Of a stretch of 64,000 nt of DNA, positions 33,996 through 63,978 are shown piece by piece. Below the pieces are notes generated by a model. It worked only from the letters and a program-made list of their open reading frames with translations, was not told the DNA's origin and did not search any database. The position numbers were made by a program, and so were the translations under genes. The first letter of the stretch is position 1; every line of letters starts with the position of its first letter. The stretch is from an uncultured Gammaproteobacteria bacterium (lineage in GTDB: Bacteria; Patescibacteriota; Microgenomatia; JALYQM01), in the NCBI GenBank assembly GCA_964525495.1, contig CAZGHS010000005.1, positions 12,599-76,598 on the forward strand. The letters are read 5' to 3'.

Positions 33996-34018
33996 GTAAA
34001 ACGGTATCCTATCGATAT

Positions 34019-34585: not shown

Positions 34586-34592
34586 AATCTAA

Positions 34593-35754: not shown

Positions 35755-35760
35755 ACAAGA

Positions 35761-36666
35761 TTATGCAGTGGGAACTAATATCCGCAGTGCTTGTGGAATA
35801 ATTTTAGCGCTAATATTTTTTGTTGTCATTTCTAAATCATCACACATAACTGTTTGACTAGAAGGCACAACAATCGATACTTCCTTAGCTTGCCAATGTG
35901 AATACACGTCCTCAGCTTTTTGCTGCATTAAAGCACTTCCCGCAGCTTTCATAACCGAAGGGAGATCACCCTTATGCAAAACTATTACATCAAGCATTCC
36001 ATCAGTGCTATCACTATCCGGAACCATCGAGACATCTTGAAGTCCAATATTGCCGACATTTCCAATCACGATAGCCACACCTTCAACATCTTTCGTTACA
36101 CCATCAATTATCAAAGAATATTTCTGAGGTTCAGATTGTAAAATATGAGAAATTGCAGTAACACCATATGCCAACTGTCCGATAGCCGCCTTCAAATTCG
36201 GATCTGCTTTAGATACCATATCAGCAACAAAGCCTATATTAATACGCAAAAGAAAATAATCATCACCGCACATGCCAATATCCATCCGCTTTTCAGTTAG
36301 AGAACCGGTCTTTATGAGATCAAGAGCGGCTTTACTATCGATAGGCATTTTTAACTCTTTAGCAACAACATTCGCAGTGCCACCAGGCAGTACAAACATA
36401 GGAATATCTTGATGAGCCAAAGCTTGCGCTACCTGACAGACCGTACCGTCACCTCCATAAACACATATAAGATCAGCTCCTGAGTGTATTAAACCTTCTG
36501 CAAATTCCTTTGCATCGCCCTCTTTTTTAGTAACAAGCACGTCCCAATGAATCTCCGAATCCTTAAAAGCTTCAGCTATAAAAGACAAAATAGCTTCATC
36601 TTTACCTGAAACCGGATTGACAATTATTTTAATATTTTTATACACAACAGTATAAATATAACACAC
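35761..36666 (-). CDS. Lipid kinase of the diacylglycerol-kinase catalytic domain family (YegS/BmrU-like)
   Basis: IIVNPVSGK...LICVYGGDGTV...LPGGTANVVAKEL are DAGK_cat signature motifs. 301 aa. Confidence 0.7.
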   Translation of the reverse strand: MCYIYTVVYKNIKIIVNPVSGKDEAILSFIAEAFKDSEIHWDVLVTKKEGDAKEFAEGLIHSGADLICVYGGDGTVCQVAQALAHQDIPMFVLPGGTANVVAKELKMPIDSKAALDLIKTGSLTEKRMDIGMCGDDYFLLRINIGFVADMVSKADPNLKAAIGQLAYGVTAISHILQSEPQKYSLIIDGVTKDVEGVAIVIGNVGNIGLQDVSMVPDSDSTDGMLDVIVLHKGDLPSVMKAAGSALMQQKAEDVYSHWQAKEVSIVVPSSQTVMCDDLEMTTKNISAKIIPQALRILVPTA

Positions 36667-36741
36667 ACCAACAACATTAATAGCAGTGATGAATAACCGA
36701 TTCTAAAAACCTATCGAGAGCAGTATAATAGCAAATACTGC

Positions 36742-37929: not shown

Positions 37930-37938
37930 AATTAAATT

Positions 37939-39456: not shown

Positions 39457-39459
39457 GAG

Positions 39460-41109: not shown

Positions 41110-42791
41110 TCTGCAATTTTTTCTTTAATAAAACCTTTTTCTAACAATCGAGCAGTAACTTCGTCCACAGCATCTTTGCGGATATAAAGTTTTGCTTCAA
41201 TATCCACCTTCAACGTTATCGACGTAGTAGTAACATATGCTTTGTTCCCTTTGCGGTAATCAACGTAATGCACGTACTCTTCCGACAAGAAATCCAAAAA
41301 AGGCACACCAAATGTTTCCGGACTTTTACCTAAAACATAAAAATATTTATCAAAATAGATAACTTTGGGGCGTTTACTACGAATCTCATCAGTCATTGGT
41401 TGGACCAATCCCGCCTCTTTCATCGCTGGGATCATGATCTGGTATCGAGAAGGCACTTGAGCATTCATGTACCACAAATCCTCAAAAGCAAATGGACCTA
41501 TCCACGCATAGTCGTCTTTAGTTATTGCTGCATTCACCATAGGAGCAATGTCAGGACGATCATAAATTAATGGCATTAGACCCATATATTTACTGTAGGC
41601 TTTATCGGAAAAATATTTAATAAATGTCAGTGAAGAGAAGCTAAACAAAATTCCACAAATACCAAACAACCCATATAATATAAACATTTGCGGCCGGTTA
41701 AATGACTTGTCACGCAAGGCAACATACGCTCTCCACAAAAACACAAACGAAACAAATAAACACAACACAAAATACACAGCAATCTGGTAATCAGGCTCTT
41801 TAGACGTCAAAGGATTACTACGAACATTGGCAAAAGTTAAAACACCTAATGTAAACGCAGCGAATATAAACTGTTTTCTAAATAACAAATAGATCACAAA
41901 ACACACAAACCCCACAGCCAAAGCAACATTCACAGGATACTGCAAACTAGCACTAGGAACCTGCGTCAACAGGCTTAGCGTATTTGAAAAAAACATATAC
42001 GTAATGGCTACTGCATAACGAATCGGATTAAACGAAGACGATCCTTCCGGTCGAGGATAATTATAAATATAATAATTTTTGTTAAATTCATACGCCTGGC
42101 GATAAAAATCTCCAAGATTACCTTGAATAGCAAATACAACAAACAAAAATATAAATGGAGCGCTCAAAAAACCAATAGCCGTAAATGCTTCTTTTAATAC
42201 GATTTTTTTACCATTGAAAAAATACCGATACAGCAAGAATGAATAGAACAAAGAACACACAAAAAAGTAAGTAAACGAACTCGTAAGCGCAAGAAAAACC
42301 AGCAGTCCAGGTACGAAAAGTTCTCTCGGGGTAATAGAACGCTCATATAGTACAAGCCCGGTACAGAATGCAAACACAGGCAATAAGAAAAGTGCCGCAA
42401 TACTGTCAGCAAGCAACATGTGTCCCCAAAAATAGGTCAGTGTAACCTGAAGAAAAAACAGAAACAGCAAGTATAGTCGACTAAATTCTGAAGGAAAACG
42501 TTTCCGTATAAACCAGTAACTCCATAAGAGATAGATACAAAGCAAAATGGCATACACTATGCGGAAACCAAAAAACGAAATGCCTGAAAACAATTGAGGT
42601 ATAACTGCAACAAAATATGCAGTCGGTCCATGGTGGGTAAAAAAGTCAGAATAAATCGGCTTACCTTCAATTAGGTACCGGCCTCCCAGAATATTGTCAA
42701 ACTCATCTGGATAGGACTCATGGACAGTATTTATCAGTCCAATACTAAAAAACAGGATAATTAAAAGAGTAACCTTTAAGTAATGCCACAT
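41106..42791 (-). CDS. Polytopic membrane protein, possible GT-C-like glycosyltransferase (opposite strand, within the GT39 array)
   Basis: 561 aa. N-terminal TM segment then SYPDEFDNILGGRYL (a DE-containing first loop), followed by many TM helices. No confident family match. Confidence 0.4.
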   Translation of the reverse strand: MWHYLKVTLLIILFFSIGLINTVHESYPDEFDNILGGRYLIEGKPIYSDFFTHHGPTAYFVAVIPQLFSGISFFGFRIVYAILLCIYLLWSYWFIRKRFPSEFSRLYLLFLFFLQVTLTYFWGHMLLADSIAALFLLPVFAFCTGLVLYERSITPRELFVPGLLVFLALTSSFTYFFVCSLFYSFLLYRYFFNGKKIVLKEAFTAIGFLSAPFIFLFVVFAIQGNLGDFYRQAYEFNKNYYIYNYPRPEGSSSFNPIRYAVAITYMFFSNTLSLLTQVPSASLQYPVNVALAVGFVCFVIYLLFRKQFIFAAFTLGVLTFANVRSNPLTSKEPDYQIAVYFVLCLFVSFVFLWRAYVALRDKSFNRPQMFILYGLFGICGILFSFSSLTFIKYFSDKAYSKYMGLMPLIYDRPDIAPMVNAAITKDDYAWIGPFAFEDLWYMNAQVPSRYQIMIPAMKEAGLVQPMTDEIRSKRPKVIYFDKYFYVLGKSPETFGVPFLDFLSEEYVHYVDYRKGNKAYVTTTSITLKVDIEAKLYIRKDAVDEVTARLLEKGFIKEKIAD

Positions 42792-42866
42792 ATTCCAAAT
42801 TCAGTATATCACTCAAAATATAGTATGCACGCCCACGATCCGGTATAATACCAAAAGAACAACAGC

Positions 42867-44513
42867 ATGATAAAAAAAGCCATTATTTTAGCCATTATTG
42901 TCATCGGAATTACACTCAGGTTCTATAACCTCGGAGAGGTTCCTTATTCAATGGACTGGGATGAAGTTTCACTGGGGTACAACGCGTATTCCATGTTATT
43001 GCAAGGAACCGACGAATACGGCAATACCTGGCCTCTCTCCATTCGTTCATTCAACGACTACAAACCACCAGCTTACGCGTACTTCACAATTCCTTCTATC
43101 GCACTCTTCGGACTTGATCAGTTTTCTATTCGTGCACCAAGCGCATTCTTTGGCTCGCTTACCATCATTTTTGTTTACCTGTTAACTCGTGAATTTTTTA
43201 AAAACTCAAAAAACAGCCAACTTCGTGAATATGCACCATTGACTGCGATGTTCATTTTTGCGATCTCGCCCTGGTCTCTGCAATTTTCTCGAGCAGCATT
43301 CGAAGCAAACATAGCAGTCTTCTTTGTGGTATCAGGAATGTGGGCAATCCTTCATTATTTGAATACTCAAAAGCCTAAATGGATCTACCTCAGCGCACTA
43401 TTATTGGCGGCTTCATTTTACTGTTATCACGCACCCCGCCTCGTAGTTCCACTTCTTCTTCTCGGCGTACTAATACGCTATCGTAATGCATTCAAACAGC
43501 AATACAAACATGTAATTATTGCCTCAGTTATCGCCCTCATATTCATAGCGCCTCTGGTAATTGTTCTGTTCCGAGGTACCGCTTCATCGCGCTTCACATC
43601 GGTCTCAGTGTTTAAGCCTTCCTTCGAAATGTTGCGAACCTTAGAATACGCCAGAGAAGACGAAGTAAAAGGCAAATGGGAATCCATATTTCACAATAGA
43701 AGAATGATTTACGCCTTGAGCATTGTAGAAGGATACGCAGACCATTTTTATCCCAGCAGTATGTTCCTCAAAGGAGATCCAGTACAACGTCATCATGCTC
43801 CCGGCATGGGTCATTTCTACTTACTCGAATTTCCTTTCTTCATCATTGGACTTATATTTCTTCTAAAAAAGAAGTTCAACTTTAAATGGCTATTCTTCTA
43901 TTGGTACTTTATTGCGCCAATTCCTGCAGCAATCTCAACCGGCACACCGCACGCCATTCGCAGTATTTTATTCTTGCCCATCCCACAGATCATGATTGCG
44001 GTTGGACTGATCGTGGCAATAAACTGGTCAAGGCAACAAATACAAAAAATCTCAAAATCCAAAGCACTCATATATTTCCCAGCTATACTCGTTATCCTCT
44101 CGTACATAGCAAACTTCACGTATTATCTCAATCAATATTACGTAAACTTAGATAAAGAGTACGCTCGTGAATGGCAATATGGCTATAAAGAATTAGTAGA
44201 AACGCTCAAGCCTATAGAAGATAAATATGACAAAATTCTGGTAACTACCGCCTGGGACCAGCCATATATATACTTTCTCTATTACAAAAACTATGATCCT
44301 CGAGTTTGGATAAACAATGGAGAATTCAATAAAGGGTTCGATAAATACGAATTCCGGCGTGTAATCTGGGCAGAGGACAGGAATTTAAAAAATACATTAA
44401 TAGTGGGAAGTTTCGGAGAAATTCCAGAAGGTGAGTCAGGAACGCTAAAAGTTATTACATTTCCTGATGGGAAACTCGACGCTTTTAGAATCTATGATAA
44501 TCCCAACGACTAG
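42867..44513 (+). CDS. GT-C fold glycosyltransferase, family 39/PMT_2-like (paralog)
   Basis: MDWDEVSLGYNAYSM loop motif; 548 aa; polytopic. Confidence 0.8.
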   Translation: MIKKAIILAIIVIGITLRFYNLGEVPYSMDWDEVSLGYNAYSMLLQGTDEYGNTWPLSIRSFNDYKPPAYAYFTIPSIALFGLDQFSIRAPSAFFGSLTIIFVYLLTREFFKNSKNSQLREYAPLTAMFIFAISPWSLQFSRAAFEANIAVFFVVSGMWAILHYLNTQKPKWIYLSALLLAASFYCYHAPRLVVPLLLLGVLIRYRNAFKQQYKHVIIASVIALIFIAPLVIVLFRGTASSRFTSVSVFKPSFEMLRTLEYAREDEVKGKWESIFHNRRMIYALSIVEGYADHFYPSSMFLKGDPVQRHHAPGMGHFYLLEFPFFIIGLIFLLKKKFNFKWLFFYWYFIAPIPAAISTGTPHAIRSILFLPIPQIMIAVGLIVAINWSRQQIQKISKSKALIYFPAILVILSYIANFTYYLNQYYVNLDKEYAREWQYGYKELVETLKPIEDKYDKILVTTAWDQPYIYFLYYKNYDPRVWINNGEFNKGFDKYEFRRVIWAEDRNLKNTLIVGSFGEIPEGESGTLKVITFPDGKLDAFRIYDNPND

Positions 44514-44573: not shown

Positions 44574-46091
44574 ATGAATGAAACAGGTAAAAAAGTAGTA
44601 ATTCTCGGAGCAGGACTCGCAGGTTTAGCCTGTGGGCACGAGCTCACTAAGAAGTCCGATACTCAAGTGACATTAGTTGAAAAAAACCCCTATGCTGGTG
44701 GTTTAGCTGTTACATTCCGTAAAAATGGCTTTGTCTTCGACTCTGGGCCTCATCGATGGTTCACCAAATCTGACGAAATTGACGAGTGGATGCGAGATCT
44801 TCTCAAAGGAGAGCTTACTGACGTCAATCGCCTCACCCGTATCTACTATAAAGGTAAATACTATAACTACCCACTCAAGCCGCTCAACGCGCTTGCAAAT
44901 CTCGGTATCTTTCATGCAGTCTGGGCTATTTTGTCATATTTCAAAACACGTATCGCCATAAAAACTGGCCTTCGTACACCCTCAAACGAAAACATGAAAG
45001 ACGCCTATATTAACCTTTTTGGCACCAAACTATACTACGAATTCTTCCACTATTATACAGAAAAACTCTGGGGTAAAAAAACCACTGAACTTTCAGGCGA
45101 CTGGGTCTCGCAGCGCGCAAAAGGTTTAAGTATCTGGGGTGCAGTCAAAGATTCGTTTATTAAATCTAAAAACGTTGTCAGTTTAATAGACAAATTTATC
45201 TACCCCAAAACCGGGTTTGGTCGCATCGCCGAAAAGCTCGAGGAAGATATTCTTAAAAAATCACAGAACAAGATCCAACTCTCCCAAGATGTCATAAAAA
45301 TTGATTGGTCAGAGAAAGATGGCGAAAAACACATCAACTCCATAACCGTCACCCAAACACACGCAAAAGATATCCACGACGAACACATAGAAATTAGCCG
45401 CAAAGAACTTGGAAGTAAGCCGACCGCACAGAGCGATCAAACAGAAACATTAACTGCTGAGAACTTTGTTTCTAGTATCCCGCTCACAGAATTAGTACTT
45501 AAACTTACTCCAGCAGCCGATGAAAACGTTATTCAAGCAGCCAAAGGCTTATCCTATCGCGACGAAATACAAGTCACAGTTATGGTCAACAAAGCACACT
45601 TCACTCCAGACAACTGGGTCTATACCCAAGACTCCAAACTTATTTTCGTGCGTCTCATGGAAATGGATGCTTGGACCGACGGTCTTTCACCTGAAGGCAC
45701 GACATCAATAGTATTCGAACTCGCATGCCAAGAGGGTGACGAGCTATGGAACATGAAGGACGAGGACATTGTGACTAAAGTAGCCGAAAACTATATCGCA
45801 GAATTCCATTACTTCGAAAAAGAAAATATTGTGGGCTCATACGTTCACCGTGTACCAAAAGAATATCCTGTCTACGATCTCGGCTACAAAGAAAAAGTCG
45901 AAGCGCTTAAAGAGTATCTCAAAGGATTCAAAAATCTCCAGATCATCGGCCGCAATGGAACATTCAAGTATAACAACTCAGACCACTCAATCCAAATGGG
46001 TCTCTATGCTGCCAGAAATATCATGGGTGAAAATTACGATCTCGAAAACGTCAACACCGACCGTGCATATCACGAAGTAAAAAAGGTTTAA
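44574..46091 (+). CDS. FAD/NAD(P)-binding oxidoreductase (amine-oxidase/UDP-galactopyranose-mutase-like Rossmann fold)
   Basis: N-terminal dinucleotide-binding motif VVILGAGLAGLACGHEL...VEKNPYAGG; 505 aa. The exact substrate cannot be assigned from sequence alone. Confidence 0.65.
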   Translation: MNETGKKVVILGAGLAGLACGHELTKKSDTQVTLVEKNPYAGGLAVTFRKNGFVFDSGPHRWFTKSDEIDEWMRDLLKGELTDVNRLTRIYYKGKYYNYPLKPLNALANLGIFHAVWAILSYFKTRIAIKTGLRTPSNENMKDAYINLFGTKLYYEFFHYYTEKLWGKKTTELSGDWVSQRAKGLSIWGAVKDSFIKSKNVVSLIDKFIYPKTGFGRIAEKLEEDILKKSQNKIQLSQDVIKIDWSEKDGEKHINSITVTQTHAKDIHDEHIEISRKELGSKPTAQSDQTETLTAENFVSSIPLTELVLKLTPAADENVIQAAKGLSYRDEIQVTVMVNKAHFTPDNWVYTQDSKLIFVRLMEMDAWTDGLSPEGTTSIVFELACQEGDELWNMKDEDIVTKVAENYIAEFHYFEKENIVGSYVHRVPKEYPVYDLGYKEKVEALKEYLKGFKNLQIIGRNGTFKYNNSDHSIQMGLYAARNIMGENYDLENVNTDRAYHEVKKV

Positions 46092-51449: not shown

Positions 51450-51451
51450 AG

Positions 51452-51523
51452 TACCCCCGACCAGAATCGAACTGATATCTATCCCTTAGGACGGGACTGT
51501 TCTATCCGTTGAACTACGGGGGC
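51452..51523 (-). tRNA. tRNA-Arg (anticodon CCU)
   Basis: The reverse complement folds as a cloverleaf: acceptor GCCCCCG/CGGGGGT (with a G1-U72 wobble), U8, D-stem GTTC/GAAC, anticodon stem GTCCC/GGGAT with loop GTCCTAA, T-arm ATCAG-TTCGATT-CTGGT, discriminator A. No encoded CCA. Confidence 0.7.
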
Positions 51524-51567: not shown

Positions 51568-52488
51568 CTAGCTATTCTGATTACGCATTTCCCAATACTT
51601 CACATAACTAGTTCGGATATGCAACGCAGAATAAATAGCCCAGACCAATCCGGCAAATCCATCCATAAAGCCTTTATGCCGAAAGTAAAGGCTAAAAAAG
51701 GTCTTACTCGGGATATAGAACATCCATTTAAAAAGCGAAAATATATCAGTTCCAGGGGCAAAATTACTTTTTGCTCCAGGTTTTTTTTGAAAATTATCCA
51801 GCCATTCCTGAGCTTGCAAGCTAGTATAGCGATTCGAACGCTGCAAATAGCGAGAAAAAGTTGGATCGGCCATGTGGATTAAGTCAGACGACAGCACGGA
51901 TATTTGGCCATCAATAATCATCTGATCATGCACTTCTTTCAATGCAAAATGTGCTTTTCCTTTTTTAACCAAACGCACAGTCCCATCTGGATATGCGCCA
52001 CCATGCATCAAAAATTTTCCCAAGAAATAATTCCGACGAGGTAAATAAAATGCCACAATAGGACCATCTTTTGTTCCTACACTACCATCTCGCTCCTCGA
52101 GCTGCGTTAAATGTCGAATAAGTAAATCATATTTAGTAGGATCCACACTATGATTTTCTAAATCCGCCTTTTTTGACGATACGACTTTAATGATTTCTTC
52201 AGCTAATTCATGTGAAACTCGTTCATCAGCATCAAGCTGCAAAACCCACTCGCCTGTAGCCGCATCAAGTGCTTTTTGCTTATTAATATGAAAAATTGGA
52301 GGGTTATCTGTCTTAATTATCTTTGCACCAAATGTCTCAGCTATTTCAACAGTTTTATCAGTGCTTCCACCATCTACAATCACAATTTCCTGGGCAATGT
52401 CTTTAACTGATTCTAAGCACTCTTTTAGGTTAGCTTCCTCATTAAAAACAGCTAAAACCACAGATAAATTAGTTTGTTTTCCGTCCAT
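51568..52488 (-). CDS. Family 2 glycosyltransferase (GT-A fold)
   Basis: LSVVLAVFNEE...IVIVDGGSTD...LQLDADE (DxD motif); 306 aa. Confidence 0.75.
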   Translation of the reverse strand: MDGKQTNLSVVLAVFNEEANLKECLESVKDIAQEIVIVDGGSTDKTVEIAETFGAKIIKTDNPPIFHINKQKALDAATGEWVLQLDADERVSHELAEEIIKVVSSKKADLENHSVDPTKYDLLIRHLTQLEERDGSVGTKDGPIVAFYLPRRNYFLGKFLMHGGAYPDGTVRLVKKGKAHFALKEVHDQMIIDGQISVLSSDLIHMADPTFSRYLQRSNRYTSLQAQEWLDNFQKKPGAKSNFAPGTDIFSLFKWMFYIPSKTFFSLYFRHKGFMDGFAGLVWAIYSALHIRTSYVKYWEMRNQNS

Positions 52489-55777: not shown

Positions 55778-56407
55778 ATGAAAAATCTATATTTTCTCTC
55801 AACTGTTCTCCTCGTAATGACACTCGCAGCCTGCACACAAAACACACCAGAAACACCATCTGCAGAAAATTCAACTGAAAATATGCAGACAGAAAATCAA
55901 AATAGTACTAATAATTCTGACCAGAAAGTGAATATTATGAAAAAAGCTACAATTGAAACAAACATGGGCAATATTACAATAGAATTCTATCCAACAGACG
56001 CGCCTAAAACAGTCGAAAACTTCCAGAAACTCGCATCAAGCGGTTTCTATAACAATGTCGTCTTCCACCGCGTTATCAAAGGCTTCATGATCCAAGGTGG
56101 CGACCCAACAGGTACAGGAACAGGTGGTCCAGGCTACAAATTCAATGATGAAATTAATAAAACCAGCGATTTATACAAAACAGGCTATAAAAAAGGTGTT
56201 GTGGCAATGGCAAATGCAGGTCCAAACACCAACGGAAGTCAGTTCTTTATAATGCACGCAGACTACCCACTCCCACCTAGTTATACAATCTTCGGAAGAG
56301 TTGTCGAAGGACTAGATGTTGTAGATAAAATTGCAAATTCGCCAACTGATCCGAGCGATAAGCCTGTCACAGCAGTGACAATGAAATCAGTTAAGCTTTC
56401 TGACTAA
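55778..56407 (+). CDS. Cyclophilin-type peptidyl-prolyl cis-trans isomerase lipoprotein
   Basis: Lipobox LAACTQ. FHRVIKGFMIQGGDPTGTGTGGPGYKFNDE and GSQFFI are cyclophilin signatures. Confidence 0.85.
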   Translation: MKNLYFLSTVLLVMTLAACTQNTPETPSAENSTENMQTENQNSTNNSDQKVNIMKKATIETNMGNITIEFYPTDAPKTVENFQKLASSGFYNNVVFHRVIKGFMIQGGDPTGTGTGGPGYKFNDEINKTSDLYKTGYKKGVVAMANAGPNTNGSQFFIMHADYPLPPSYTIFGRVVEGLDVVDKIANSPTDPSDKPVTAVTMKSVKLSD

Positions 56408-56427
56408 CTCGTGTATAATCGTAGCTA

Positions 56428-57483
56428 ATGAAGGTTGCAATTGACGTATCTCCACTCAGTTCAGGTCATGCCGTGCGTGGTATAGGATTCTATACAAAAT
56501 CACTCGTTGAAGGGCTACAATCCCGAAATGATGGCAATGAATACAATCTAGTCGAGTCAGAGGTAGAAATCGATGCAATTAAACCAGACCTCATTCACTA
56601 TCCTTTTTACGATCTATTTTTTCCAACCGCCCCAGATCGTAAAAATATACCAGTGATCGTAACCCTTCACGATGTTACTCCACTCGTATTGCCCGAACTC
56701 TTTCCTAAAGGAATCAAAGGTTGGTGGAATCTCCGACAACAACTCAAAAAACTAAAAAAAATGGACGGTGTTATCACGGACTCCGAATGTTCTAAGCGCG
56801 ACATCCATTCGTTATGCAACATTTCGAAAGAAAAAATAGAAACTGTCTATCTTGCCTGCGATCCAACATATAAACCAGAAACAAATACCCAGAAGCTCGA
56901 AGAAGTAAAACGAAAATATAACCTTCCAGAAAAATATTGTATAAAAGTAGGAGATATAAATAAGCACAAGAACTTCAGAGTATTATTTGATGCGCTTACT
57001 CGATTGCCAGATGTACATTTAATTCTAGTCGGCAAAGCGCTCGATGAAAAAAGTCCGTTAGTACCAGAACTAAAAGAAATCGTAGAAGATATTCAAGCCT
57101 TTGGTTTACAGAACCGAGTGCACAGGTTAGGATTCGTTCCGACTGAAGATATGAATGCACTTTATTCACTTGCCCGCTGCACCGTCCAGAACTCGTTGTA
57201 TGAAGGGTTCGGATTAACAGCACTCGAATCTATGACATGTGGCACCCCTGTGATCGTAGGCAGCACAGGAAGCCAACCAGAAGTAGTTGGAACTGCTGGG
57301 ATACTAATTAATCCAGAAGATGTAACGGAAACAGCAGATGCGATCGAACGTATGTTCAAATTAGAGCAGGACCAGTACGATATACTCAAACAAAAATCAC
57401 TTGATCAATCCAAAAAATTCTCAGTACAAAAAATGGTCGACGAAACAGCGCATATATATGAAAAATTTAAACCAATACATTAA
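56428..57483 (+). CDS. Family 4 glycosyltransferase (GT-B fold, GT1/GT4 superfamily)
   Basis: C-terminal EGFGLTALESMTCGTPVI nucleotide-sugar binding motif. TGTATAAT at 56412-56419 lies immediately upstream. Confidence 0.75.
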   Translation: MKVAIDVSPLSSGHAVRGIGFYTKSLVEGLQSRNDGNEYNLVESEVEIDAIKPDLIHYPFYDLFFPTAPDRKNIPVIVTLHDVTPLVLPELFPKGIKGWWNLRQQLKKLKKMDGVITDSECSKRDIHSLCNISKEKIETVYLACDPTYKPETNTQKLEEVKRKYNLPEKYCIKVGDINKHKNFRVLFDALTRLPDVHLILVGKALDEKSPLVPELKEIVEDIQAFGLQNRVHRLGFVPTEDMNALYSLARCTVQNSLYEGFGLTALESMTCGTPVIVGSTGSQPEVVGTAGILINPEDVTETADAIERMFKLEQDQYDILKQKSLDQSKKFSVQKMVDETAHIYEKFKPIH

Positions 57484-58825
57484 TATATTAAAATCCGATC
57501 CTATTGCGCGTGGATCAGCAATACTTTTTGTAGGATCATTCGTAGTCAACATATTCAGCTATATTTATAACCTTATCATAGGGCGTATGTTGGGACCCGT
57601 ACTGTATGGTGAATATCTCTCCCTTATAACAATCGTATATCTCGTGAGCATACCGTTTGGAACTGTCCAAACGATCGTCATTAAGTATGTATCACAACTT
57701 AATTCACAAAACGAGTCACAAAAAATCAAAATATTACTTATCATGTTGACTAAATACATAACCATTTTTGCTTCGATAGTAAGTATCGTGTTGATCCTTA
57801 CAACACCTGTAATCAGCAACTTCCTGAAAATTGACGACATCCCAGCAATCGTTCTTATGGGAATTACATTCACAGCCTTCACAGTTCCAACAGTATTAGT
57901 ATCTGCCTTTAACGGTCTTGAGAGATTTCTCGAGGGAACTGTGATCAACGGAGTTGCATTAATTTTCCGTATAGTTATGTCAATCCTAGCAATCGGTTTA
58001 GGATTCGGTGTGGGAGGAGTATTTGGCGCATTGATTGTAGGATCAATGTTTGGGTATGGGTTGCTGTGGTACTATCTTAATAAATATTTGGACTCAGCAA
58101 GTCATAAAAGAAATTTAATAACAAAAATAAATTCATTTTTTAGAAGACTTGCTGCAGGGACAACAAACGAAATAACTTCCCTCAAAGAAGACATAATTAA
58201 ATTTACTATTCCTGCTGTCATCTCAACTATCGGGATTGCTGCTATCACCCAAGTTGATATAATCTTTGCCAAAGCTTTTTTCTCGCCAGAGGACGCAGGA
58301 ATATATAGTTCATTAGCAATCATCGGCAAAGTAATTCCATTTTTTACAATTCCACTACTCACCGCACTATTTCCTCAACTTGTCGCAAAAGTTACACGCA
58401 AGGAAAATTTTCTAAAACCTTTTTATGCAATTTTAGGAATCATTACCGTCGCTTCATTATGTTTATCAATATTTTATTTTATTTTTCCAGAGTTCATAAT
58501 AAACATGTTTTTTGGAAAACAGTATATGAACGCCGTACCATACATAGGATTATTCGGTCTTTTCCAGACAGTGTATGCAATTATGAATGCCTATGTGAAT
58601 TTTTTCCTAGCCATCGGAAAAAACAAACTGGCTGCACAAGCTATTGTGGCTGTAATTCTTCAATCATTTCTCATAATGATATTTCACAAATCACTTTATG
58701 ATTTAATATTAGTGTCACTTTGTGTATGTGCGTTGTTCACAATATACTATAGTGTATGTACATTACAACTGGCGTATAATACAAAAAAAATATCGCATGA
58801 ACCAATCAAAAAAAATATCATATAG
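57458..58825 (+). CDS. Oligosaccharide/polysaccharide flippase (MOP superfamily, Wzx-like)
   Basis: About 14 predicted TM helices with Wzx-like organisation. The start is taken at MKNLNQYI, overlapping the previous gene by 26 nt; the ORF track's upstream Met is at 57401. Confidence 0.65.
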   Translation: MKNLNQYINILKSDPIARGSAILFVGSFVVNIFSYIYNLIIGRMLGPVLYGEYLSLITIVYLVSIPFGTVQTIVIKYVSQLNSQNESQKIKILLIMLTKYITIFASIVSIVLILTTPVISNFLKIDDIPAIVLMGITFTAFTVPTVLVSAFNGLERFLEGTVINGVALIFRIVMSILAIGLGFGVGGVFGALIVGSMFGYGLLWYYLNKYLDSASHKRNLITKINSFFRRLAAGTTNEITSLKEDIIKFTIPAVISTIGIAAITQVDIIFAKAFFSPEDAGIYSSLAIIGKVIPFFTIPLLTALFPQLVAKVTRKENFLKPFYAILGIITVASLCLSIFYFIFPEFIINMFFGKQYMNAVPYIGLFGLFQTVYAIMNAYVNFFLAIGKNKLAAQAIVAVILQSFLIMIFHKSLYDLILVSLCVCALFTIYYSVCTLQLAYNTKKISHEPIKKNII

Positions 58826-59600
58826 ACTATCAGTAATTATCCCTGCATATAAGCAGGAAAAAACAATTATAGAGGATTTAGAGAATATTCAGTCAATCTT
58901 GAACCAATTACGCTACGATTATGAAATGATAATAGTAAACGATGGTTCGCCTGATAAAACAAAAGAAAAAATAGAAGATTTTATAGAAAAAACAGCATCA
59001 CCTAAATCAAAGGCAAAAATTATATCCTACGAAAAAAACCAAGGCAAAGGTCATGCCGTACGTATCGGAATCTCCAAAGCAGAAGGAGCGTATATTGCTT
59101 TCATAGATTCTGGAATGGATCTTAATCCCAATGGTCTATCGATGCTGCTCGAACATATGGAATGGTATAAAGCAGATATAATAGTAGGTTCCAAAAGGCA
59201 TCCAGCATCCAAAGTACAATATCCACTAATACGCCGTATTTACAGCCTTGGGTATCAGATATTTTGCTCACTATTATTCGGATTAAACATTAAAGATACA
59301 CAAACCGGGCTGAAGATATTTAAAAGGGAGGTCATACAGGACGTAATGCCTCGCTTATTGATAAAAAAGTGGGCTTTCGATATCGAGATGCTTGCTGTTG
59401 CTAACCATCTTGGACATACTAAAATTTATGAAGCTCCAATTGAACTTCGGCATATTTTTACAAATTCGAATATTAATAAAAAGGTAGTGTGGAATATGTT
59501 GTGGGATACTGCTGCAGTATTTTATCGAATGCATATTTTGCATTATTACGACAATGCGAACAAAAAAAGCTGGGCATCCAATCTTTCTGAGCCGAAGTAG
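58797..59600 (+). CDS. Family 2 glycosyltransferase, polyprenyl-phosphate sugar synthase-like (DPM1/GtrB/ArnC-type)
   Basis: LSVIIPAYKQE...IIVNDGSPD...YEKNQGKGHAVRIG...FIDSGMDL resembles dolichyl/undecaprenyl-phosphate glycosyltransferases. The start is probably MNQSKK (58797). Confidence 0.65.
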   Translation: MNQSKKISYRLSVIIPAYKQEKTIIEDLENIQSILNQLRYDYEMIIVNDGSPDKTKEKIEDFIEKTASPKSKAKIISYEKNQGKGHAVRIGISKAEGAYIAFIDSGMDLNPNGLSMLLEHMEWYKADIIVGSKRHPASKVQYPLIRRIYSLGYQIFCSLLFGLNIKDTQTGLKIFKREVIQDVMPRLLIKKWAFDIEMLAVANHLGHTKIYEAPIELRHIFTNSNINKKVVWNMLWDTAAVFYRMHILHYYDNANKKSWASNLSEPK

Positions 59601-59605
59601 TAGTT

Positions 59606-60364
59606 TTACAATATACCCTTCCGTCGCCAATAGTGAGTATGAGCAAGAGAGAAAGCTCCATCTACAGCAAGAGTTTGTCCCGTAATATATCCAGACTTGT
59701 CAGAAGCAAGAAACACCATTGCATTTCCTACATCCTCAGGAGATCCTAAATAACCCCGTGGGACCTGTTGCGAAGACTTATCTTCAAGATTCCAAATATC
59801 AATAGCTCCAGGAGCAACACCATTTACACGAATGCCGTATTCAGCCAGTTCCAAAGCTGAATCCTTAATAAACATTTCAAGTGCAGCTTTTGAAGAAGAA
59901 TAAGCAGGTCGCAGTATTGTAACCTTACTGTGAGTGGATGTAGTAAAAAGAATTGAGCCTGCAATTTGTTTATCAATCATAACACCAACAACTTTTTGTG
60001 TTAAGAAAAAAGGGCCAATCAGATTTGTGTAATACACTTGCTCAATTTCTTCACGAGTAAGATCTAAAAGACCTTTTCCTGCGCTCATTCCTGCGTTATT
60101 TACTAATATATCTATTCGTCCATATTCTGACATCACCATATCTACCAATGCAGTCGTTGCATCATAATCACGGACATCGCATTGTACACAAGAAACTGAG
60201 CCTCCAAATGTTTCCATTTCCGATCGAACTTCATCAAACAAAGTCGGATCAATATCCGAGATTACGACGTGCGCACCTTCTCGTGCCATTGCTTTTGCAA
60301 TTCCCCGGCCAATTCCTCGAACCGCTCCTGTTACTATTACAACTTTATCCGCCAATGTCTTCAT
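59606..60364 (-). CDS. Short-chain dehydrogenase/reductase (SDR) family oxidoreductase
   Basis: TGAVRGIGRGIA cofactor motif, NNAG, and YSSSKAALEMF (YxxxK catalytic motif). Confidence 0.85.
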   Translation of the reverse strand: MKTLADKVVIVTGAVRGIGRGIAKAMAREGAHVVISDIDPTLFDEVRSEMETFGGSVSCVQCDVRDYDATTALVDMVMSEYGRIDILVNNAGMSAGKGLLDLTREEIEQVYYTNLIGPFFLTQKVVGVMIDKQIAGSILFTTSTHSKVTILRPAYSSSKAALEMFIKDSALELAEYGIRVNGVAPGAIDIWNLEDKSSQQVPRGYLGSPEDVGNAMVFLASDKSGYITGQTLAVDGAFSLAHTHYWRRKGIL

Positions 60365-60411
60365 GTCCAGATTGTAACACAATATAAAGCAGATTCAGAT
60401 ATAATGGTCTT

Positions 60412-61527
60412 ATGAAAGTTTTGTGGTTATCATGGAAAGACATAACGCACCCAGATTCGGGCGGTGCAGAGATGTCAGGTCTAGAGCATGCCAAGGCATG
60501 GACACAAGCAGGTCATTCTGTACACTGGGTAAGTACAGGATACACAAACAGCAAACAACAGGAAGTCGTAGATGGAATAGTATACGAGCATATAGGCTCA
60601 AAGTGGATGTGGTATCTGGGAGTCATCCATATACTCATGGCATACAAATATATAACGCAATGGAAAAATGAATATGATTTCATAGTCGACGAAATACATG
60701 GGCCACCGCTGCTCACACCACTCTACGCAAAAAAGCCAAAAATAGTAATTATTCATGAAGTAGCAGGGGATATCTGGAAAAAAACAGTCCCTTTTCCAAT
60801 CAGCTGGATTGCGCAACACATCGTCGAGCCATTCTTTTTTAAAGCATACACAAAAGTTCCCTTCATAGTAGGCGCGCAGACAACTAAAGACGACCTTATC
60901 AAGGTTGGTATATCAGAGCAAAATATAACCCTCATTCCATACGGAGTCACTATTCCCATACAGAAAACAAATTATCCCAAAGAGGTAACACCAACACTAA
61001 TTTTCTTAAGCAGTCTACGCCCTATCAAAGGGTTTGATCGAGTTTATGAAGCATTTAAATCAATTCAAAAGGAAATCCCGGAAATAAAACTCTGGGTAGT
61101 AGGGGATGATTCCCTTCCTTACGGACAAAAGTTAAAGCAAAAAGTATTACGAGAAAATAAAAACGTAATTTTTAATGGAAAAGTTTCCCAAGAAGAAAAG
61201 TTTGAGCTTCTACAGCGAGCACATATATTAACTCATGGATCATATAAAGAAGGATGGGGACTAGTAGTAATCGAGTCTAATGCAGTCGGCACACCAGCTG
61301 TTGTATTTGATGCAGCAGGCTTAAGAAATAGTATAATAAGTGACAAAACAGGGTATCTAGCTCGTTCGGAAAGAGAGTTCTGTGGTTACATAGTTGAATT
61401 ACTTAACAACACAGAAAAATATACTAAAATGCAGCAGGATGCCAAGGTTTGGAGTAAGCAGTTCTCTTGGGGAAATTCGACTGCTCAATCATTACAAATT
61501 ATTAGTAAGATGCTAAATTCGAAATGA
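60412..61527 (+). CDS. Family 4 glycosyltransferase (GT-B)
   Basis: EGWGLVVIESNAVGTPAVVFD motif; 371 aa. Confidence 0.75.
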   Translation: MKVLWLSWKDITHPDSGGAEMSGLEHAKAWTQAGHSVHWVSTGYTNSKQQEVVDGIVYEHIGSKWMWYLGVIHILMAYKYITQWKNEYDFIVDEIHGPPLLTPLYAKKPKIVIIHEVAGDIWKKTVPFPISWIAQHIVEPFFFKAYTKVPFIVGAQTTKDDLIKVGISEQNITLIPYGVTIPIQKTNYPKEVTPTLIFLSSLRPIKGFDRVYEAFKSIQKEIPEIKLWVVGDDSLPYGQKLKQKVLRENKNVIFNGKVSQEEKFELLQRAHILTHGSYKEGWGLVVIESNAVGTPAVVFDAAGLRNSIISDKTGYLARSEREFCGYIVELLNNTEKYTKMQQDAKVWSKQFSWGNSTAQSLQIISKMLNSK

Positions 61528-62576
61528 AAACCTTTTCAGTAATTATTCCAACTCTCAATGCACAACGTACACTAGAAGAATGCTTGCAATATATTTCCTT
61601 ACAAAACTATTCCAAAGAGCAATTCGAAGTAATTATTGCTGATGGTGGGTCGACAGATAATACTTTAGAAATCGCTAAACAATACAATTGTATCGTTGTA
61701 CCTAATATGCTCAAAACTGCAGAAGCTGGAAAAATGACAGCTTTGAAGGCGGCAAAAGGAAAATATATCATTTCGATCGATTCAGATAATGTTTTATTGG
61801 ACAAGGACTGGTTTTTAAAAATGCAAAAAGTTTTGGACACTGATGCGGATATCGTTGCTGCCGAGCCAATTGAGTTCGTCTGTCGTCCTACCGATCACCC
61901 TTTAGTGCGATATTTTGCATACCTCGGAATGGGAGATCCACTAAATCTATTTCTTGGAAATTATGACAAAATCAGTGCAGTAACAGGTAAATGGACATCT
62001 CTTAATATTAAAGAGCAAGAAAAAAAAGATGGGTATATAAAAATTAGGTTATATCAGCATGATCAGCTCCCCACGATAGGTGCAAATGGTTTTGTAGTAA
62101 GACGAGAATTGCTTTCATCACTACAAGATAAACAATATCTTTTCGACGTTGACGTTTTAGATAGTTTAATGATTCAAGAAAGCAATTCATGTTATATAGC
62201 AAAAGTAGATACGGGTGTGGTCCATCTATTCGTCACTGATTTTAAAACATTGATAAGAAAACTCAGAAGGAAAGTGAAAGATTATGTATATTATCAGTCA
62301 AAAGATTTGCGCGTCACACATAAAAATACAAATCCTATTTTAAGGTTACTTTATCCAGGCGGTCCCAATTTCACTGGACTACTTCTTTTCATAGTTTGTT
62401 GTGTAAGTGTTATCCCTCTTATAATTCAAGCAACGATTGGCTATATTCGTAAGCCAGATTGGGTCTGGATATATCACCCGGTGGTCTGTTGGATTGCGCT
62501 CTACGTATATGGTACAGAGAGAATAAAAAGCATCTTCAAAAAATCTATTTACGATCGGAGTTCTTGGAGTCAGTGA
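61524..62576 (+). CDS. Family 2 glycosyltransferase (GT-A)
   Basis: FSVIIPTLNAQ...VIIADGGSTD...ISIDSDN (DxD); 350 aa; ATGA overlap with the preceding GT4. Confidence 0.7.
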   Translation: MKTFSVIIPTLNAQRTLEECLQYISLQNYSKEQFEVIIADGGSTDNTLEIAKQYNCIVVPNMLKTAEAGKMTALKAAKGKYIISIDSDNVLLDKDWFLKMQKVLDTDADIVAAEPIEFVCRPTDHPLVRYFAYLGMGDPLNLFLGNYDKISAVTGKWTSLNIKEQEKKDGYIKIRLYQHDQLPTIGANGFVVRRELLSSLQDKQYLFDVDVLDSLMIQESNSCYIAKVDTGVVHLFVTDFKTLIRKLRRKVKDYVYYQSKDLRVTHKNTNPILRLLYPGGPNFTGLLLFIVCCVSVIPLIIQATIGYIRKPDWVWIYHPVVCWIALYVYGTERIKSIFKKSIYDRSSWSQ

Positions 62577-63978
62577 TTTGCAACACTCCTAAACTACATA
62601 CAACACAGGAAATAAAACAGGTAAGCCCGACGGAAGAAAACAACAACACCAATAAATTTAAATTAAAAATCTGCAGAATAAGACAGATGCTAAGAAGAAT
62701 AAGAGTCAAAAAATATAAAATTTGTAGACGAACTGCATTAAAGGCTACCATACATATCGAAGAAATAGTTATGCCTATAAGCAATGTTGTGTTAATTGCA
62801 TTCCAACTTATCAATTGAGCTCCCATAAAAAAAATAAAAACAGCTAAAAATATGAAACTTACCGCGTAAATTACACTATACATCCATGAAACAATTATTG
62901 TGAATTTCCTAGCATATGCGGTATTAAAGATAAATTTAAGCGCTCGAGTTCTAAGGAGATAAAAGAATTTATAAAGAAAAATTCTAAATAAATAGACAAA
63001 AAATAGTATCCAGATAATAATGATTAAAGTAAAATATCTCAGTTGAAAAACCGGAACAATAGTAAGTGTGTAGTTGGAAGGATCATGATGTGTTTGCTCA
63101 GTTACTTTCCAATTAGTTCCAAGTTGTTGACGAATCTGTTCGTCTTGACTTAGATATGTATTTCGCACAGAGACGTTATATGAACTATCGTCGCCTTTAC
63201 TAATAGATACACTTGGAGTTCTTCCAGGAAGAGCAGCAACTCGATCAAGTTGTAAGTATGGTTCATAAACCGGGAGTACTTGGACTGTAATGCCGGAAAG
63301 TTCACTCTCAGGGATGCCAACTTTATTAACAAGTTCAATGCCAGCAGTAGAATCAGAAGAACTTTTCATAAAAACAAGATAATTTGTGTAATCCCTTGGA
63401 TGAAAATTAGTTTTACGAAGGACCGTATTAAGCAAATCGTGGCGTGAAGAAGATAACTCAAAGACATTTAAATTTACGTCGCGTGACAATCGATACTTCA
63501 TCTGTAACAAATATGTCTGATTAGGTTCAAAATGAGAGATAGAAAAGTGATATCTTTGGAATTCATCCGTTGAAGAGATTTTCTGCCATGATCCTAAATA
63601 AGGTGACGGAGTAAATCCAGACAGAGTAAAAATATTTCTAACCGGTTCATTAACTCGAACATTGGGATAAGTGAACAGAGTTGTTCCGTCCGCCTGTGTA
63701 ACCTCACTAACACGTTGTATCTGCCCAGATGAAGTCTGCAGTGCAAGTTGAGCGCGCATGCTGGCGGGAACAAAACTCAAATTAAAGGATGCATTAAAAA
63801 GACCCTGCTCCTTTCGCTCAGTAATTGATTTCAAATCATAGCGAATTTCGTGTGGATACCGATTAGAAGAAATGGGGTCGATTTTTTCTAAAAGTGAATC
63901 AAAAATAGAATCGGCTAATGACTGCAAATATTTAGAGTCTTGTTCAGATCTCTTATTCTTTCCTTCTGCAATCCGCAT
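62545..63978 (-). CDS. Hypothetical protein with a soluble N-terminal domain and a C-terminal polytopic membrane region (may extend beyond the window end)
   Basis: 477-aa ORF. The last roughly 170 aa are highly hydrophobic. No stop codon lies between the first Met and the window edge. Confidence 0.45.
   Translation of the reverse strand: MRIAEGKNKRSEQDSKYLQSLADSIFDSLLEKIDPISSNRYPHEIRYDLKSITERKEQGLFNASFNLSFVPASMRAQLALQTSSGQIQRVSEVTQADGTTLFTYPNVRVNEPVRNIFTLSGFTPSPYLGSWQKISSTDEFQRYHFSISHFEPNQTYLLQMKYRLSRDVNLNVFELSSSRHDLLNTVLRKTNFHPRDYTNYLVFMKSSSDSTAGIELVNKVGIPESELSGITVQVLPVYEPYLQLDRVAALPGRTPSVSISKGDDSSYNVSVRNTYLSQDEQIRQQLGTNWKVTEQTHHDPSNYTLTIVPVFQLRYFTLIIIIWILFFVYLFRIFLYKFFYLLRTRALKFIFNTAYARKFTIIVSWMYSVIYAVSFIFLAVFIFFMGAQLISWNAINTTLLIGITISSICMVAFNAVRLQILYFLTLILLSICLILQIFNLNLLVLLFSSVGLTCFISCVVCSLGVLQITDSKNSDRK

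Follow-up and report, generated by a model that had tools for sequence, protein, structure and literature searches.

Gene content of the locus

We analyzed a stretch of 64,000 nucleotides (nt) from contig CAZGHS010000005.1 (assembly GCA_964525495.1), hereafter called the window, which carries a cluster of glycan biosynthesis genes at 56428-62576. As mapped from a listing of open reading frames (ORFs) and from Pfam matches, the cluster consists of two cytoplasmic glycosyltransferases of family GT4 (GT4a and GT4b), a membrane protein of the MOP superfamily, two glycosyltransferases of family GT2 (GT2a and GT2b), and a short-chain dehydrogenase/reductase (SDR) (Table 1). A first-pass annotation had placed six such genes within the interval 55778-62576. 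This interval holds seven genes, six of them glycan-related: all six are confirmed, but the gene at 55778 encodes a cyclophilin and not a GT4. The overlapping or abutting boundaries described there are readily seen. The genes for GT4a and the MOP protein overlap by 26 nt, the 3' end of the latter overlaps the start of the GT2a gene by 29 nt, and the GT4b and GT2b genes overlap by 4 nt; the GT2a and SDR genes are convergent with a gap of 5 nt, and the SDR and GT4b genes divergent with a gap of 47 nt. On the 5' side of the cluster lie six paralogous GT-C glycosyltransferases of the PMT_2 family (29006-44513), followed by the gene for an FAD-dependent oxidoreductase (44574). Unrelated genes separate this oxidoreductase from the cluster (ZnuABC, GSDH, GDSL lipase, UvrD-like helicase, and NUDIX), and among them is a further GT2 gene, GT2c (51568). 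Both GT2c and the oxidoreductase had been listed as neighbors, and both are present.

Table 1. Position, strand, and supporting matches of the cluster genes and their glycan-related neighbors in the window
Feature	Position	Strand	Matches and remarks
GT-C paralogue 1 (PMT_2)	28867-30493	+	PMT_2 34.9 bits; frameshifted near 29095-29108
GT-C paralogue 2 (PMT/PMT_2)	30501-32249	+	Pfam; loop-1 WDE
GT-C paralogue 3 (PMT/PMT_2)	32259-33995	+	Pfam; loop-1 WDE
GT-C paralogue 4, divergent	37939-39456	+	PMT_2 22.2 bits, below cut-off 26.1; nine hydrophobic segments; weak hhalign match to GT-C profile
GT-C paralogue 5 (PMT_2)	39460-41109	+	Pfam; loop-1 VDE
GT-C paralogue 6 (PMT_2)	42867-44513	+	PMT_2 51.4 bits, highest of the paralogues; loop-1 WDE
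FAD-dependent oxidoreductase, PRK07208 family	44574-46091	+	NCBIfam NF005548; adjoins GT-C block
GT2c, soluble GT2, GmaR/SunS type	51568-52488	-	Pfam; PDB matches
Cyclophilin peptidyl-prolyl isomerase	55778-56407	+	PF00160 162 bits; lipoprotein-type signal peptide, exported
GT4a, cytoplasmic GT-B (GT4)	56428-57483	+	Glycos_transf_1 107 bits and Glyco_transf_4; no transmembrane helix
MOP flippase, PST/Wzx-type (predicted)	57458-58825	+	Polysacc_synt 60 bits (cut-off 28.2); at least 10 hydrophobic segments; ATG checked
GT2a, DPMS-like GT-A, 267 amino acids	58797-59600	+	PF00535 99.5 bits; no transmembrane helix; ATG checked
SDR, classical (FabG/glucose-1-dehydrogenase-like)	59606-60364	-	adh_short_C2 197 bits
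GT4b, cytoplasmic GT4	60412-61527	+	Pfam
GT2b, membrane-anchored GT2, PcManGT-like	61524-62576	+	Pfam; C-terminal transmembrane helices

GT2a resembles synthases of polyprenyl-phosphate sugars

The GT2 at 58797 had been ascribed to the DPM1/GtrB/ArnC type, and our computational results bear this out. Its best sequence match among solved structures is the dolichol-phosphate mannose synthase (DPMS) of Pyrococcus furiosus (PfDPMS; PDB 5mlz), with an E-value of 8e-14 for the single sequence and 24-25% identity over the full catalytic domain. When a profile of 36 GT2a family sequences is used, DPMS is matched at 1.5e-22 along profile positions 5-230, which covers both interface helices. Chondroitin synthase, PgaC, TuaG, TarS, and others align with GT2a only over the nucleotide-binding residues ~10-120. 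A grouping with processive synthases, which had been named beforehand as speaking against the ascription, is not what we find, since the processive enzymes align over the N-terminal half only; GT2a also gives no QxxRW-type match. The NCBIfam models that reach past GT2a residue 180 are PgfS, PpgS, ArnC, AglJ (TIGR04182, aligned over residues 12-224), and a haloarchaeal dolichol-phosphate (Dol-P) hexose transferase, all of them polyprenyl-phosphate transferases. Within this kind of glycosyltransferase GT2a is a separate family, outside every named equivalog.

The AlphaFold2 model of GT2a (pLDDT 88.7) has the Rossmann-like beta/alpha core of the GT-A fold. In a Foldseek search of the PDB with this model, ranks 1-17 are all occupied by ArnC, DPMS, or GtrB (E-values from 1e-15 to 5e-12, TM-score ~0.7), and RmlT, GpgS, and TarP come after them.

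The residues that contact the lipid point in the same direction. In PfDPMS the phosphate of Dol-P is bound by R117, R131, and S135 (Gandini et al. 2017, PMC5526996), which in HMMER alignments correspond to K133, R146, and S150 of GT2a. Our homology search retrieved 6241 GT2a homologues at E<=1e-5, the best 120 being 255-288 amino acids long and at least 56% identical. The triad is kept in 83/83, 83/83, and 82/83 species-level homologues, respectively, and in 148-149, 149, and 145 of 150 distant representatives. The gate residue of PfDPMS, F177 (PMC5526996), corresponds to F194, which is kept in 74/83 close homologues and in 133/150 distant representatives. The DADLQH motif of PfDPMS binds metal and sugar, with D91 as a metal ligand and Q93 as the second (PMC5526996); in GT2a it is replaced by D104-S-G106-M-D108 (DSGMDL). 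Position 108, the equivalent of Q93, is acidic in all 83 close homologues and in 144 of the 150 distant representatives.

GT2a has no hydrophobic segment at the threshold for a transmembrane (TM) helix, and hence no TM helix of its own. GtrB, ArnC, yeast DPM1, and PfDPMS possess such an anchor, whereas human DPM1 and GacI do without it and rely on partner proteins. Two helices of the GT2a model, at residues 144-161 (hydrophobic moment 0.48) and 228-247 (aromatic-rich, moment 0.24), align with the interface helices IFH1 and IFH2 of PfDPMS. Because PfDPMS deprived of its TM domain is still membrane-bound and active (PMC5526996), a TM-less GT2a is plausible as a lipid-sugar synthase. The MOP protein, whose gene overlaps that of GT2a or is fused to it (see below), is likely the membrane partner. 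With sequence, structure model, residues, and membrane association in agreement, we predict with good confidence that GT2a makes a polyprenyl-phosphate sugar.

A conserved array in Patescibacteria

Scanning one genome per species, we found at least 585 genomes with a GT2a relative. The best 80 of these come from Microgenomates-type members of the candidate phyla radiation (CPR; Levy-, Woese-, Davies-, Shapiro-, Ames-, and Gottesmanbacteria), from WWE3, and from others. The proteins of the window were then searched against all ORFs of the related loci, with counts taken over 82 non-redundant loci. Most of the 80 loci keep an array of 10-15 kb around GT2a, in which the following codirectional order recurs: three to five GT-C genes, GT2c, GT4a, (a PIG-V-like GT-C), the MOP gene, GT2a, (an exported protein of 675 amino acids), GT4b, and (GT2b). 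Dozens of species-level genomes share this set of genes along with its order and strand, a grouping far beyond chance.

The individual members differ in how regularly they occur. The MOP gene is found directly 5' of GT2a and codirectional with it in 60/79 loci, and GT4a lies 5' of GT2a on the same strand in 49/75. GT4b stands 3' of GT2a on the same strand in most loci, being directly adjacent in 28/74 and elsewhere following the extra gene of ~675 codons. GT2c is 5' of GT2a in 40/64 loci, codirectionally in 38. Relatives have it on the same strand in the space from the GT-C block to GT4a; in the window it has been inverted and lies apart. GT2b is a variable accessory member, with a homologue at >=100 bits 3' of GT2a in 15/63 loci. 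In the lineage of the window itself, to which L002 and L007 belong (GT2a 74-77% identical), the array is no longer intact: GT2c has been turned around, and unrelated genes have come in between. Many of the cluster-bearing metagenome-assembled genomes (L007, L008, L016-L018, and others) carry the title 'uncultured Gammaproteobacteria bacterium', which looks like a placeholder or a mislabel from bulk submission; record titles are unreliable for taxonomy here.

Two genes seen in relatives (L015, also L004 and L005) are absent from the window. One encodes a PIG-V/Mannosyl_trans2-like GT-C of ~370 amino acids, located between GT4a and the flippase in canonical Microgenomates clusters (44 ORFs across loci; L015 7592-8710), and the other an exported protein of ~675 amino acids with a C-terminal TM helix, located between GT2a and GT4b (10 ORFs across loci; L015 10765-12792). 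Some loci have a second, shorter GT2 just 5' of the flippase, exemplified by a protein of 228 amino acids (L005 8068-8754), with similar ORFs in L030, L056, L062, L074, and L077. These score 70-90 bits to GT2a and may be a second lipid-sugar synthase.

The GT-C genes are part of the same arrangement. The first-pass annotation had linked the cluster to the distant GT-C block of the window, and indeed in relatives GT-C genes are directly 5' in the same operon-like array. A profile search detected at least one PMT_2-like GT-C in 52/64 loci and at least two in 41/64, and 136 of the 142 GT-C ORFs of related loci are on the GT2a strand. The GT-C profile has ArnT as its best PDB match (5ezm, 2e-5), and also matches Pmt1 and STT3 (5.7e-4); its loop-1 Asp-Glu pair (D32/E33) is nearly invariant. 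Weak NCBIfam matches to Agl23 and ArnT are obtained with paralogue 6. The number of paralogues had been called unusually large, but we cannot agree: three to five is the norm for the clade, so the repertoire is not unusual for this lineage. Related loci also hold PIG-V-like, MptA/B, YfhO, and AftD GT-Cs, one relative adding MptA/B-, YfhO-, and PIG-V-type enzymes. Donors of the PMT_2, PIG-V-like, MptA/B, YfhO, and AftD families are polyprenyl-phosphate monosaccharides.

Components expected of other polysaccharide systems were also looked for. We detected no phosphoglycosyl transferase (Bac_transf or MraY/WecA type) among the window ORFs of 28-64 kb or in four annotated relatives, and no Wzy polymerase or Wzz/chain-length regulator in these same ORFs or in the annotated relatives; the window ORFs include two unclassified membrane proteins for which Pfam gives no match (41106-42791 and 62545-63978, see below). 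No small flippase of GtrA (PF04138) or EamA type is present among the window ORFs scanned.

A probable Wzx-type flippase coupled or fused to the predicted synthase

Polysacc_synt is the only Pfam family matched by the MOP protein, even at E<=0.1, and NCBIfam gives a weak WzxC-type match. No MurJ, SpoVB, or MatE match is found in Pfam or NCBIfam, and a MOP family profile of 31 sequences retrieves no MurJ or MATE structure from the PDB at E<=10. As neither the single sequence nor the family profile matched any solved structure in the PDB, we make no structural statement on the protein beyond this negative result for MurJ and MATE. On its profile matches we assign it to the PST (Wzx-like) family of the MOP superfamily rather than to MurJ (MVF) or MATE, in keeping with what had been proposed for it; a housekeeping protein of either kind had been named beforehand as the outcome that would refute the proposal.

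The gene is closely tied to that of GT2a. In the CPR genes that are not fused, the distance from the MOP stop codon to the downstream codon of the invariant Ser12 of GT2a has a median of 14 nt, so that the two genes overlap and translational coupling is likely. Moreover, the two proteins are naturally fused. A profile search of 1.84 billion cluster representatives yielded 1893 members of the GT2a family at E<=1e-30, and we broke down the best 150. MOP and GT2a are joined in one protein in 41 of these (36 MOP-GT2a, four MOP-GT2a-GT4b, and one GT2a-MOP-GT2b), a share that is inflated because the set consists of clusters at 50% identity. Another four are GT2a-GT4b and seven GT2a-GT2b fusions. The motif residues are kept in 41/41 of the proteins that join MOP and GT2a, and one triple fusion occurs on four contigs from independent assemblies. 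The number and diversity of the fusions rule out sporadic frameshifts as their source. Their contexts are high in GC and actinobacterium-like (73% GC in L087). As far as we found, flippase-synthase fusions of this family are undescribed in the literature. In PfDPMS the GtrA-like domain, fused to the synthase, may flip the product (PMC12992685); by analogy, the MOP-GT2a fusions would be the Wzx-type counterpart of that arrangement. Next door to the fusions (L087 10001-13186, L088 7969-10422; proteins P0274-P0390) we observed proteins with 9-10 TM helices and, in L088, an AftD-type GT-C.

The coupling bears on two rival explanations of the locus. According to the first, the MOP protein is a housekeeping transporter, either a MurJ-like flippase of lipid II or a MATE protein, and its position beside glycosyltransferases is meaningless. 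Some Gram-positive MurJ-type flippases do score with Polysacc_synt, and our view is that of this window of the genome, so that a separate MurJ elsewhere cannot be shown. Nevertheless, the profile and structure searches just described return neither MurJ, SpoVB, nor MATE, the MOP gene and that of GT2a overlap at most of the 79 loci, with 41 representative clusters having the two as a fusion, and the complete WWE3 RAAC2 genome has two MOP paralogues in the same cluster (DUF2079, MOP, three PMT_2, MOP, GT2a, and GT2 in a row). We give this explanation hardly any credence.

The second explanation is an ordinary Wzx/Wzy-like or exopolysaccharide cluster. Here GT2a would be a non-processive GT2 of the conventional sort that adds its sugar either to a glycan under construction or to a soluble phospho-acceptor; synthesis would be started by a transferase encoded at another site, and a separate pathway would employ the GT-C genes. 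Several GT2 and GT4 enzymes together with a Polysacc_synt flippase are the commonest make-up of exopolysaccharide and O-antigen loci. GT2a itself lacks a TM helix, falls below every curated family cut-off, and has the soluble GpgS and TarP among its structural matches. However, its full-length sequence and structural matches are specific to polyprenyl-phosphate transferases, the phosphate-binding triad is invariant, and either its gene is probably coupled in translation to that of a membrane flippase or the two proteins are fused. In most relatives the GT-C genes are codirectional and contiguous with GT2a, and neither Wzy, Wzz, nor a phosphoglycosyl transferase is detectable in the window or the related loci. 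We therefore consider an ordinary polysaccharide cluster improbable.

A predicted synthase-flippase-GT-C pathway

Family assignments, synteny, and fusions together suggest a pathway in which a lipid carrier is loaded with a sugar, flipped, and used by GT-C enzymes on the cell surface. In the first step, GT2a would sit on the inner face of the membrane by means of its two amphipathic interface helices and transfer one sugar from a nucleotide sugar to polyprenyl phosphate, yielding a polyprenyl-phosphate sugar. The lipid phosphate would be held by K133, R146, and S150, and the diphosphate of the nucleotide sugar, with the metal, by D104 and D108; sequence and structure are the grounds for this step. 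The Wzx-type MOP protein would then carry the lipid-linked sugar to the outer leaflet, as the conserved gene overlap and the natural fusions lead us to propose. There the ArnT/PMT-like GT-C paralogues would use the lipid-sugar donor on targets outside the cell, with proteins, a wall polymer, and a lipoglycan as the candidates; this step is suggested by conserved synteny and by what is known of these families. In the cytoplasm, GT4a, GT4b, GT2c, and GT2b would use nucleotide sugars, either to build an acceptor glycan or to extend the lipid-linked sugar before it is flipped.

Several observations weigh against this pathway. GT2a reaches the cut-off of no NCBIfam equivalog (best scores of 42-58 bits versus cut-offs of 325-529), and its best Foldseek matches are only modestly ahead of soluble GT-A enzymes, for example GpgS (1e-15 versus 2.5e-11; TM-score 0.72 versus 0.64). 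The second Asp of the DXD motif, corresponding to the metal ligand D91 of PfDPMS, is Gly in 83/83 close homologues. Since the canonical Asp (D-x-D-x-D) is present at this position in 117 of 150 representatives of the wider family, Gly106 is a derived trait of the CPR clade. PfDPMS K178, which contacts the phosphoester and the mannosyl group (PMC5526996), is replaced by D195, an Asp in all 83 close homologues. With these two replacements the active site of GT2a differs from those of characterized enzymes. In the window the GT-C block is 12-27 kb 5' of the cluster with unrelated genes between, and one of its members is frameshifted: the N-terminus of paralogue 1, with the DE motif, is encoded by an ORF of 109 codons at 28867-29196 (…YGDEISIGYNAYS…GDQKNPVYIY), and the protein continues in another frame from ~29100 (listed ORF 29006-30493). 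This frameshift, which is off any long homopolymer, could reflect a pseudogene or an assembly error. Finally, the usual cargo of Wzx-type flippases is an oligosaccharide on polyprenyl diphosphate, and we know of no direct demonstration that such a flippase moves a polyprenyl-phosphate monosaccharide. The GT2a-GT4b fusions agree no less well with an extension that precedes flipping than with a monosaccharide donor.

These last points lead to an alternative of archaeal style, in which GT2a acts like AglJ and attaches the initial sugar to polyprenyl phosphate, GT4b, GT4a, and GT2b or GT2c extend it on the cytoplasmic side, the MOP protein flips the finished oligosaccharide, and the GT-C proteins transfer or polymerize it en bloc instead of sugar by sugar. 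Fusions of GT2a with GT4b (8/150, including four triple fusions) and with GT2b (seven) suggest consecutive steps on one substrate. An oligosaccharide is what Wzx-type flippases typically move, and neither among the window ORFs scanned nor in the annotated relatives did we detect a phosphoglycosyl transferase that could start a diphosphate-linked glycan. The alignment of GT2a with the AglJ model and the contact of the GT-C profile with STT3 are also in line with this alternative. Against it, the GT-C paralogues match best to ArnT and Pmt1, which transfer single sugars, and the presence of three to six paralogues along with PIG-V-, MptA/B-, YfhO-, and AftD-type GT-Cs fits the stepwise addition of monosaccharides better than a single oligosaccharyl transferase. 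On account of these ArnT/PMT-type GT-C arrays, and since MOP-GT2a fusions without a GT4 are five times commoner than those with one, we favor a monosaccharide as the flipped species, and regard en bloc transfer of an oligosaccharide as rather unlikely. For the pathway of loading, flipping, and GT-C transfer as a whole our confidence is moderate.

A more ambitious version can be put forward only tentatively, and we hold it to be possible but doubtful. MOP and GT2a, coupled in this lineage and fused in other phyla, would form a dedicated synthase-flippase machine that makes a polyprenyl-phosphate sugar and delivers it directly through the membrane to the GT-C array, and the GT-Cs would join with the GT4s to build a Patescibacteria-specific lipoglycan or glycoprotein coat by a pathway resembling ALG or that of lipomannan/lipoarabinomannan (LM/LAM), ancestral to and near-universal in Microgenomates-type CPR. 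If this were true, the MOP protein would be the first flippase of Wzx type for which a polyprenyl-monophosphate sugar is defined as the cargo, and for an uncultivated radiation the main pathway to its envelope glycan would have been identified.

Comparison with known systems

The closest known counterpart of the predicted system is the multi-component transmembrane glycosylation of the Wzx-dependent kind represented by GacI, GacK, and GacL, followed by haloarchaeal AglD/AglR/AglS. In Streptococcus pyogenes, GacI/GacJ/GacK/GacL add the N-acetylglucosamine side chain of the group A carbohydrate and are classified as a 'type b' system (Rismondo et al. 2021, PMC8035078). As predicted for our cluster, a TM-less cytoplasmic GT-A that makes a C55-phosphate sugar, a Wzx-type flippase, and an external GT-C are encoded together. 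However, we found no small membrane partner resembling GacJ; the single GacL contrasts with three to six ArnT/PMT-like paralogues; two conserved GT4s and further GT2s accompany the array here; and GT2a is no nearer to the streptococcal PgfS/GacI-type model (58 bits, cut-off 500) than to the archaeal enzymes. In Haloferax volcanii, the DPM1-like GT2 AglD loads Dol-P, the Wzx-like AglR is implicated in moving Dol-P-mannose, and the GT-C AglS uses Dol-P-mannose; a DPM1-like GT2 can also start a monophosphate-linked oligosaccharide, as does AglJ (PMC3871713). The likeness lies in the combination of a DPM1-like GT2, a Wzx-like protein, and a GT-C, whereas the Haloferax system is archaeal, depends on dolichol, and serves S-layer N-glycans through AglB. 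No oligosaccharyl transferase of AglB/STT3 type is recognizable here beyond the weak profile match.

A three-component logic as in the Gtr (GtrA/GtrB/GtrV) and Arn (ArnC/ArnE-F/ArnT) systems had been suggested for the locus. This holds insofar as a predicted GT2 polyprenyl-phosphate-sugar synthase, a flippase, and GT-C enzymes are linked by synteny, with ArnC and GtrB as top structural matches of GT2a and ArnT as best PDB match of the GT-C profile. Yet the flippases of those systems are small proteins of GtrA or EamA/SMR type (ArnE/F) and the one here is of Wzx type as in Gac, GtrB and ArnC have two C-terminal TM helices where GT2a has none, and a single GT-C without GT4 partners is used there. 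The conserved GT4s and the GT2-GT4 fusions indicate more than three components. With a flippase that is neither GtrA- nor ArnE/F-like and a predicted synthase that has no TM helices, the system is not Gtr or Arn in the strict sense. With PfDPMS, GT2a shares the GT-A fold, the two amphipathic interface helices, the phosphate triad, and the gate Phe (F177/F194). Apart from the motif (Q93 being replaced by Asp, in addition to the changes at D91 and K178), it differs in having no C-terminal GtrA-like domain of four TM helices and in being coupled or fused to a MOP flippase instead. In the mycobacterial phosphatidylinositol mannoside (PIM)/LM/LAM and the eukaryotic ALG and glycosylphosphatidylinositol pathways, cytoplasmic GT4s use nucleotide sugars to build a lipid-linked core, which is flipped and then extended by GT-Cs from polyprenyl-phosphate sugars made by DPM1-like enzymes. 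The two-compartment plan is similar, and MptA/B-, PIG-V-, and AftD-type GT-Cs occur in related loci, although the homology of GT4a and GT4b with PimA/PimB or ALG2/11 goes no further than the family. What sets the system apart as a new variant is the clade's D-x-G-x-D motif, along with the coupling or fusion with MOP, the multiple GT-C paralogues, and the conserved GT4 partners.

The cluster most likely encodes an envelope pathway that is conserved but uncharacterized in a large uncultivated radiation and whose logic is of known kind. CPR (Patescibacteria) have genomes of ~1 Mb with very little biosynthetic capacity. With at least 585 species-level genomes holding a GT2a relative, and most of the 80 loci keeping the array, its product may be central to the CPR envelope and perhaps to a host-attached life. 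To our knowledge the surface chemistry of these ultra-small bacteria has never been studied. Our literature search for a described CPR glycosylation cluster found no paper, and a 2024 preprint calls glycosylation in Saccharibacteria unexplored. The present analysis provides a testable enzyme assignment for GT2a, and the natural flippase-synthase fusions offer a means to study how Wzx-type proteins handle monophosphate-linked sugars, a question that also concerns GacK and AglR. In addition, the analysis delimits a group of GT-C paralogues, and the giant surface proteins of the adjoining genes would be a place to look for their acceptors.

Accessory and neighboring genes

The PDB matches of GT4a are generic GT4 enzymes (BshA, MshA, PimB'), and those of GT4b are likewise generic; GT4a reaches no NCBIfam cut-off. 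GT2b, with its C-terminal TM helices and GtrB-like layout, was considered as an alternative lipid-sugar synthase and rejected as PcManGT/TarS-like. Its family profile aligns to PDB GT2s by the N-terminal ~115 residues only, DPMS coming at rank 16. Its AlphaFold2 model (pLDDT 91) has Pyrobaculum PcManGT (6yv7; 2.4e-11, TM-score 0.51) as best Foldseek match, with further matches to TarS, TarP, and hyaluronan or cellulose synthases, and ArnC first appears at rank 45, which served as a control for GT2a. GT2c was rejected for the same role as GmaR/SunS-like, its PDB matches being GmaR (1.5e-14) and SunS. Given these resemblances of GT2b and GT2c, GT2a is the only lipid-sugar-synthase candidate.

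The SDR had been taken as a possible sugar epimerase or reductase. It scores 18.5 bits against the extended-SDR Pfam family Epimerase, below the cut-off of 20.9, and 206 bits against NCBIfam PRK07231 (cut-off 215), and is FabG-like. It is a classical SDR on the opposite strand, and since homologues at >=100 bits occur in only 3/82 loci, we see no support for its acting as a sugar epimerase in the conserved pathway. The FAD oxidoreductase reaches 432 bits against NCBIfam NF005548, above the cut-off of 389, and has homologues at >=100 bits in two loci only, those of the closest relatives. Judged by this distribution, both are lineage-specific add-ons outside the conserved core. A DprE1/DprE2-type epimerization of the lipid-linked sugar by the oxidoreductase and the SDR was considered and set aside as pure speculation: none but the closest relatives have both genes, and the oxidoreductase belongs to the PRK07208/amine-oxidase type of flavoprotein. 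DprE1 sits in another flavoprotein family.

Directly 5' of the GT-C block, at 2063-28390, are five successive very large genes (3626, 1587, 1253, 1376, and 866 codons). Domains found in their products are six Laminin_G_3/ConA-like lectin domains, PKD, a GSDH beta-propeller, Calx-beta, and fn3; for two of the five products Pfam returns nothing. It is plausible that they are surface adhesins and candidate substrates for glycosylation. Within the GT-C block are also a DAGK_cat/YegS-type lipid kinase (35761-36666) and a dual-specificity phosphatase (35233-35754), both on the minus strand, as well as a glycoside hydrolase of family GH8 with a membrane anchor (36742-37929). The placement of the kinase and the hydrolase might hint at lipid-anchor recycling and glycan trimming. 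Since the related loci contain no homologues of the GH8 enzyme, the lipid kinase, the phosphatase, or the cyclophilin, we do not count these as cluster members.

Two membrane proteins on the minus strand have neither a Pfam or NCBIfam match nor a homologue in related loci, and hhalign comparison with the GT-C profile was not significant for either. One (41106-42791), inside the GT-C block, has 561 amino acids and at least eight hydrophobic segments, and could be a very divergent GT-C or polymerase. The other (62545-63978) has 477 amino acids, with a soluble N-terminal half and four C-terminal hydrophobic segments. Promoter and terminator counts in a scan of 55-64 kb were not above those of shuffled sequence. 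A tRNA-Arg(CCT) gene on the minus strand (51451-51523) abuts the inverted GT2c at the edge of the region that breaks the conserved gene order, and may mark a point of rearrangement or integration. A DUF5995 gene is split between two overlapping ORFs, 34593-34958 (profile positions 1-94) and 34927-35265 (positions 101-203), which is the second apparent frameshift in the window.

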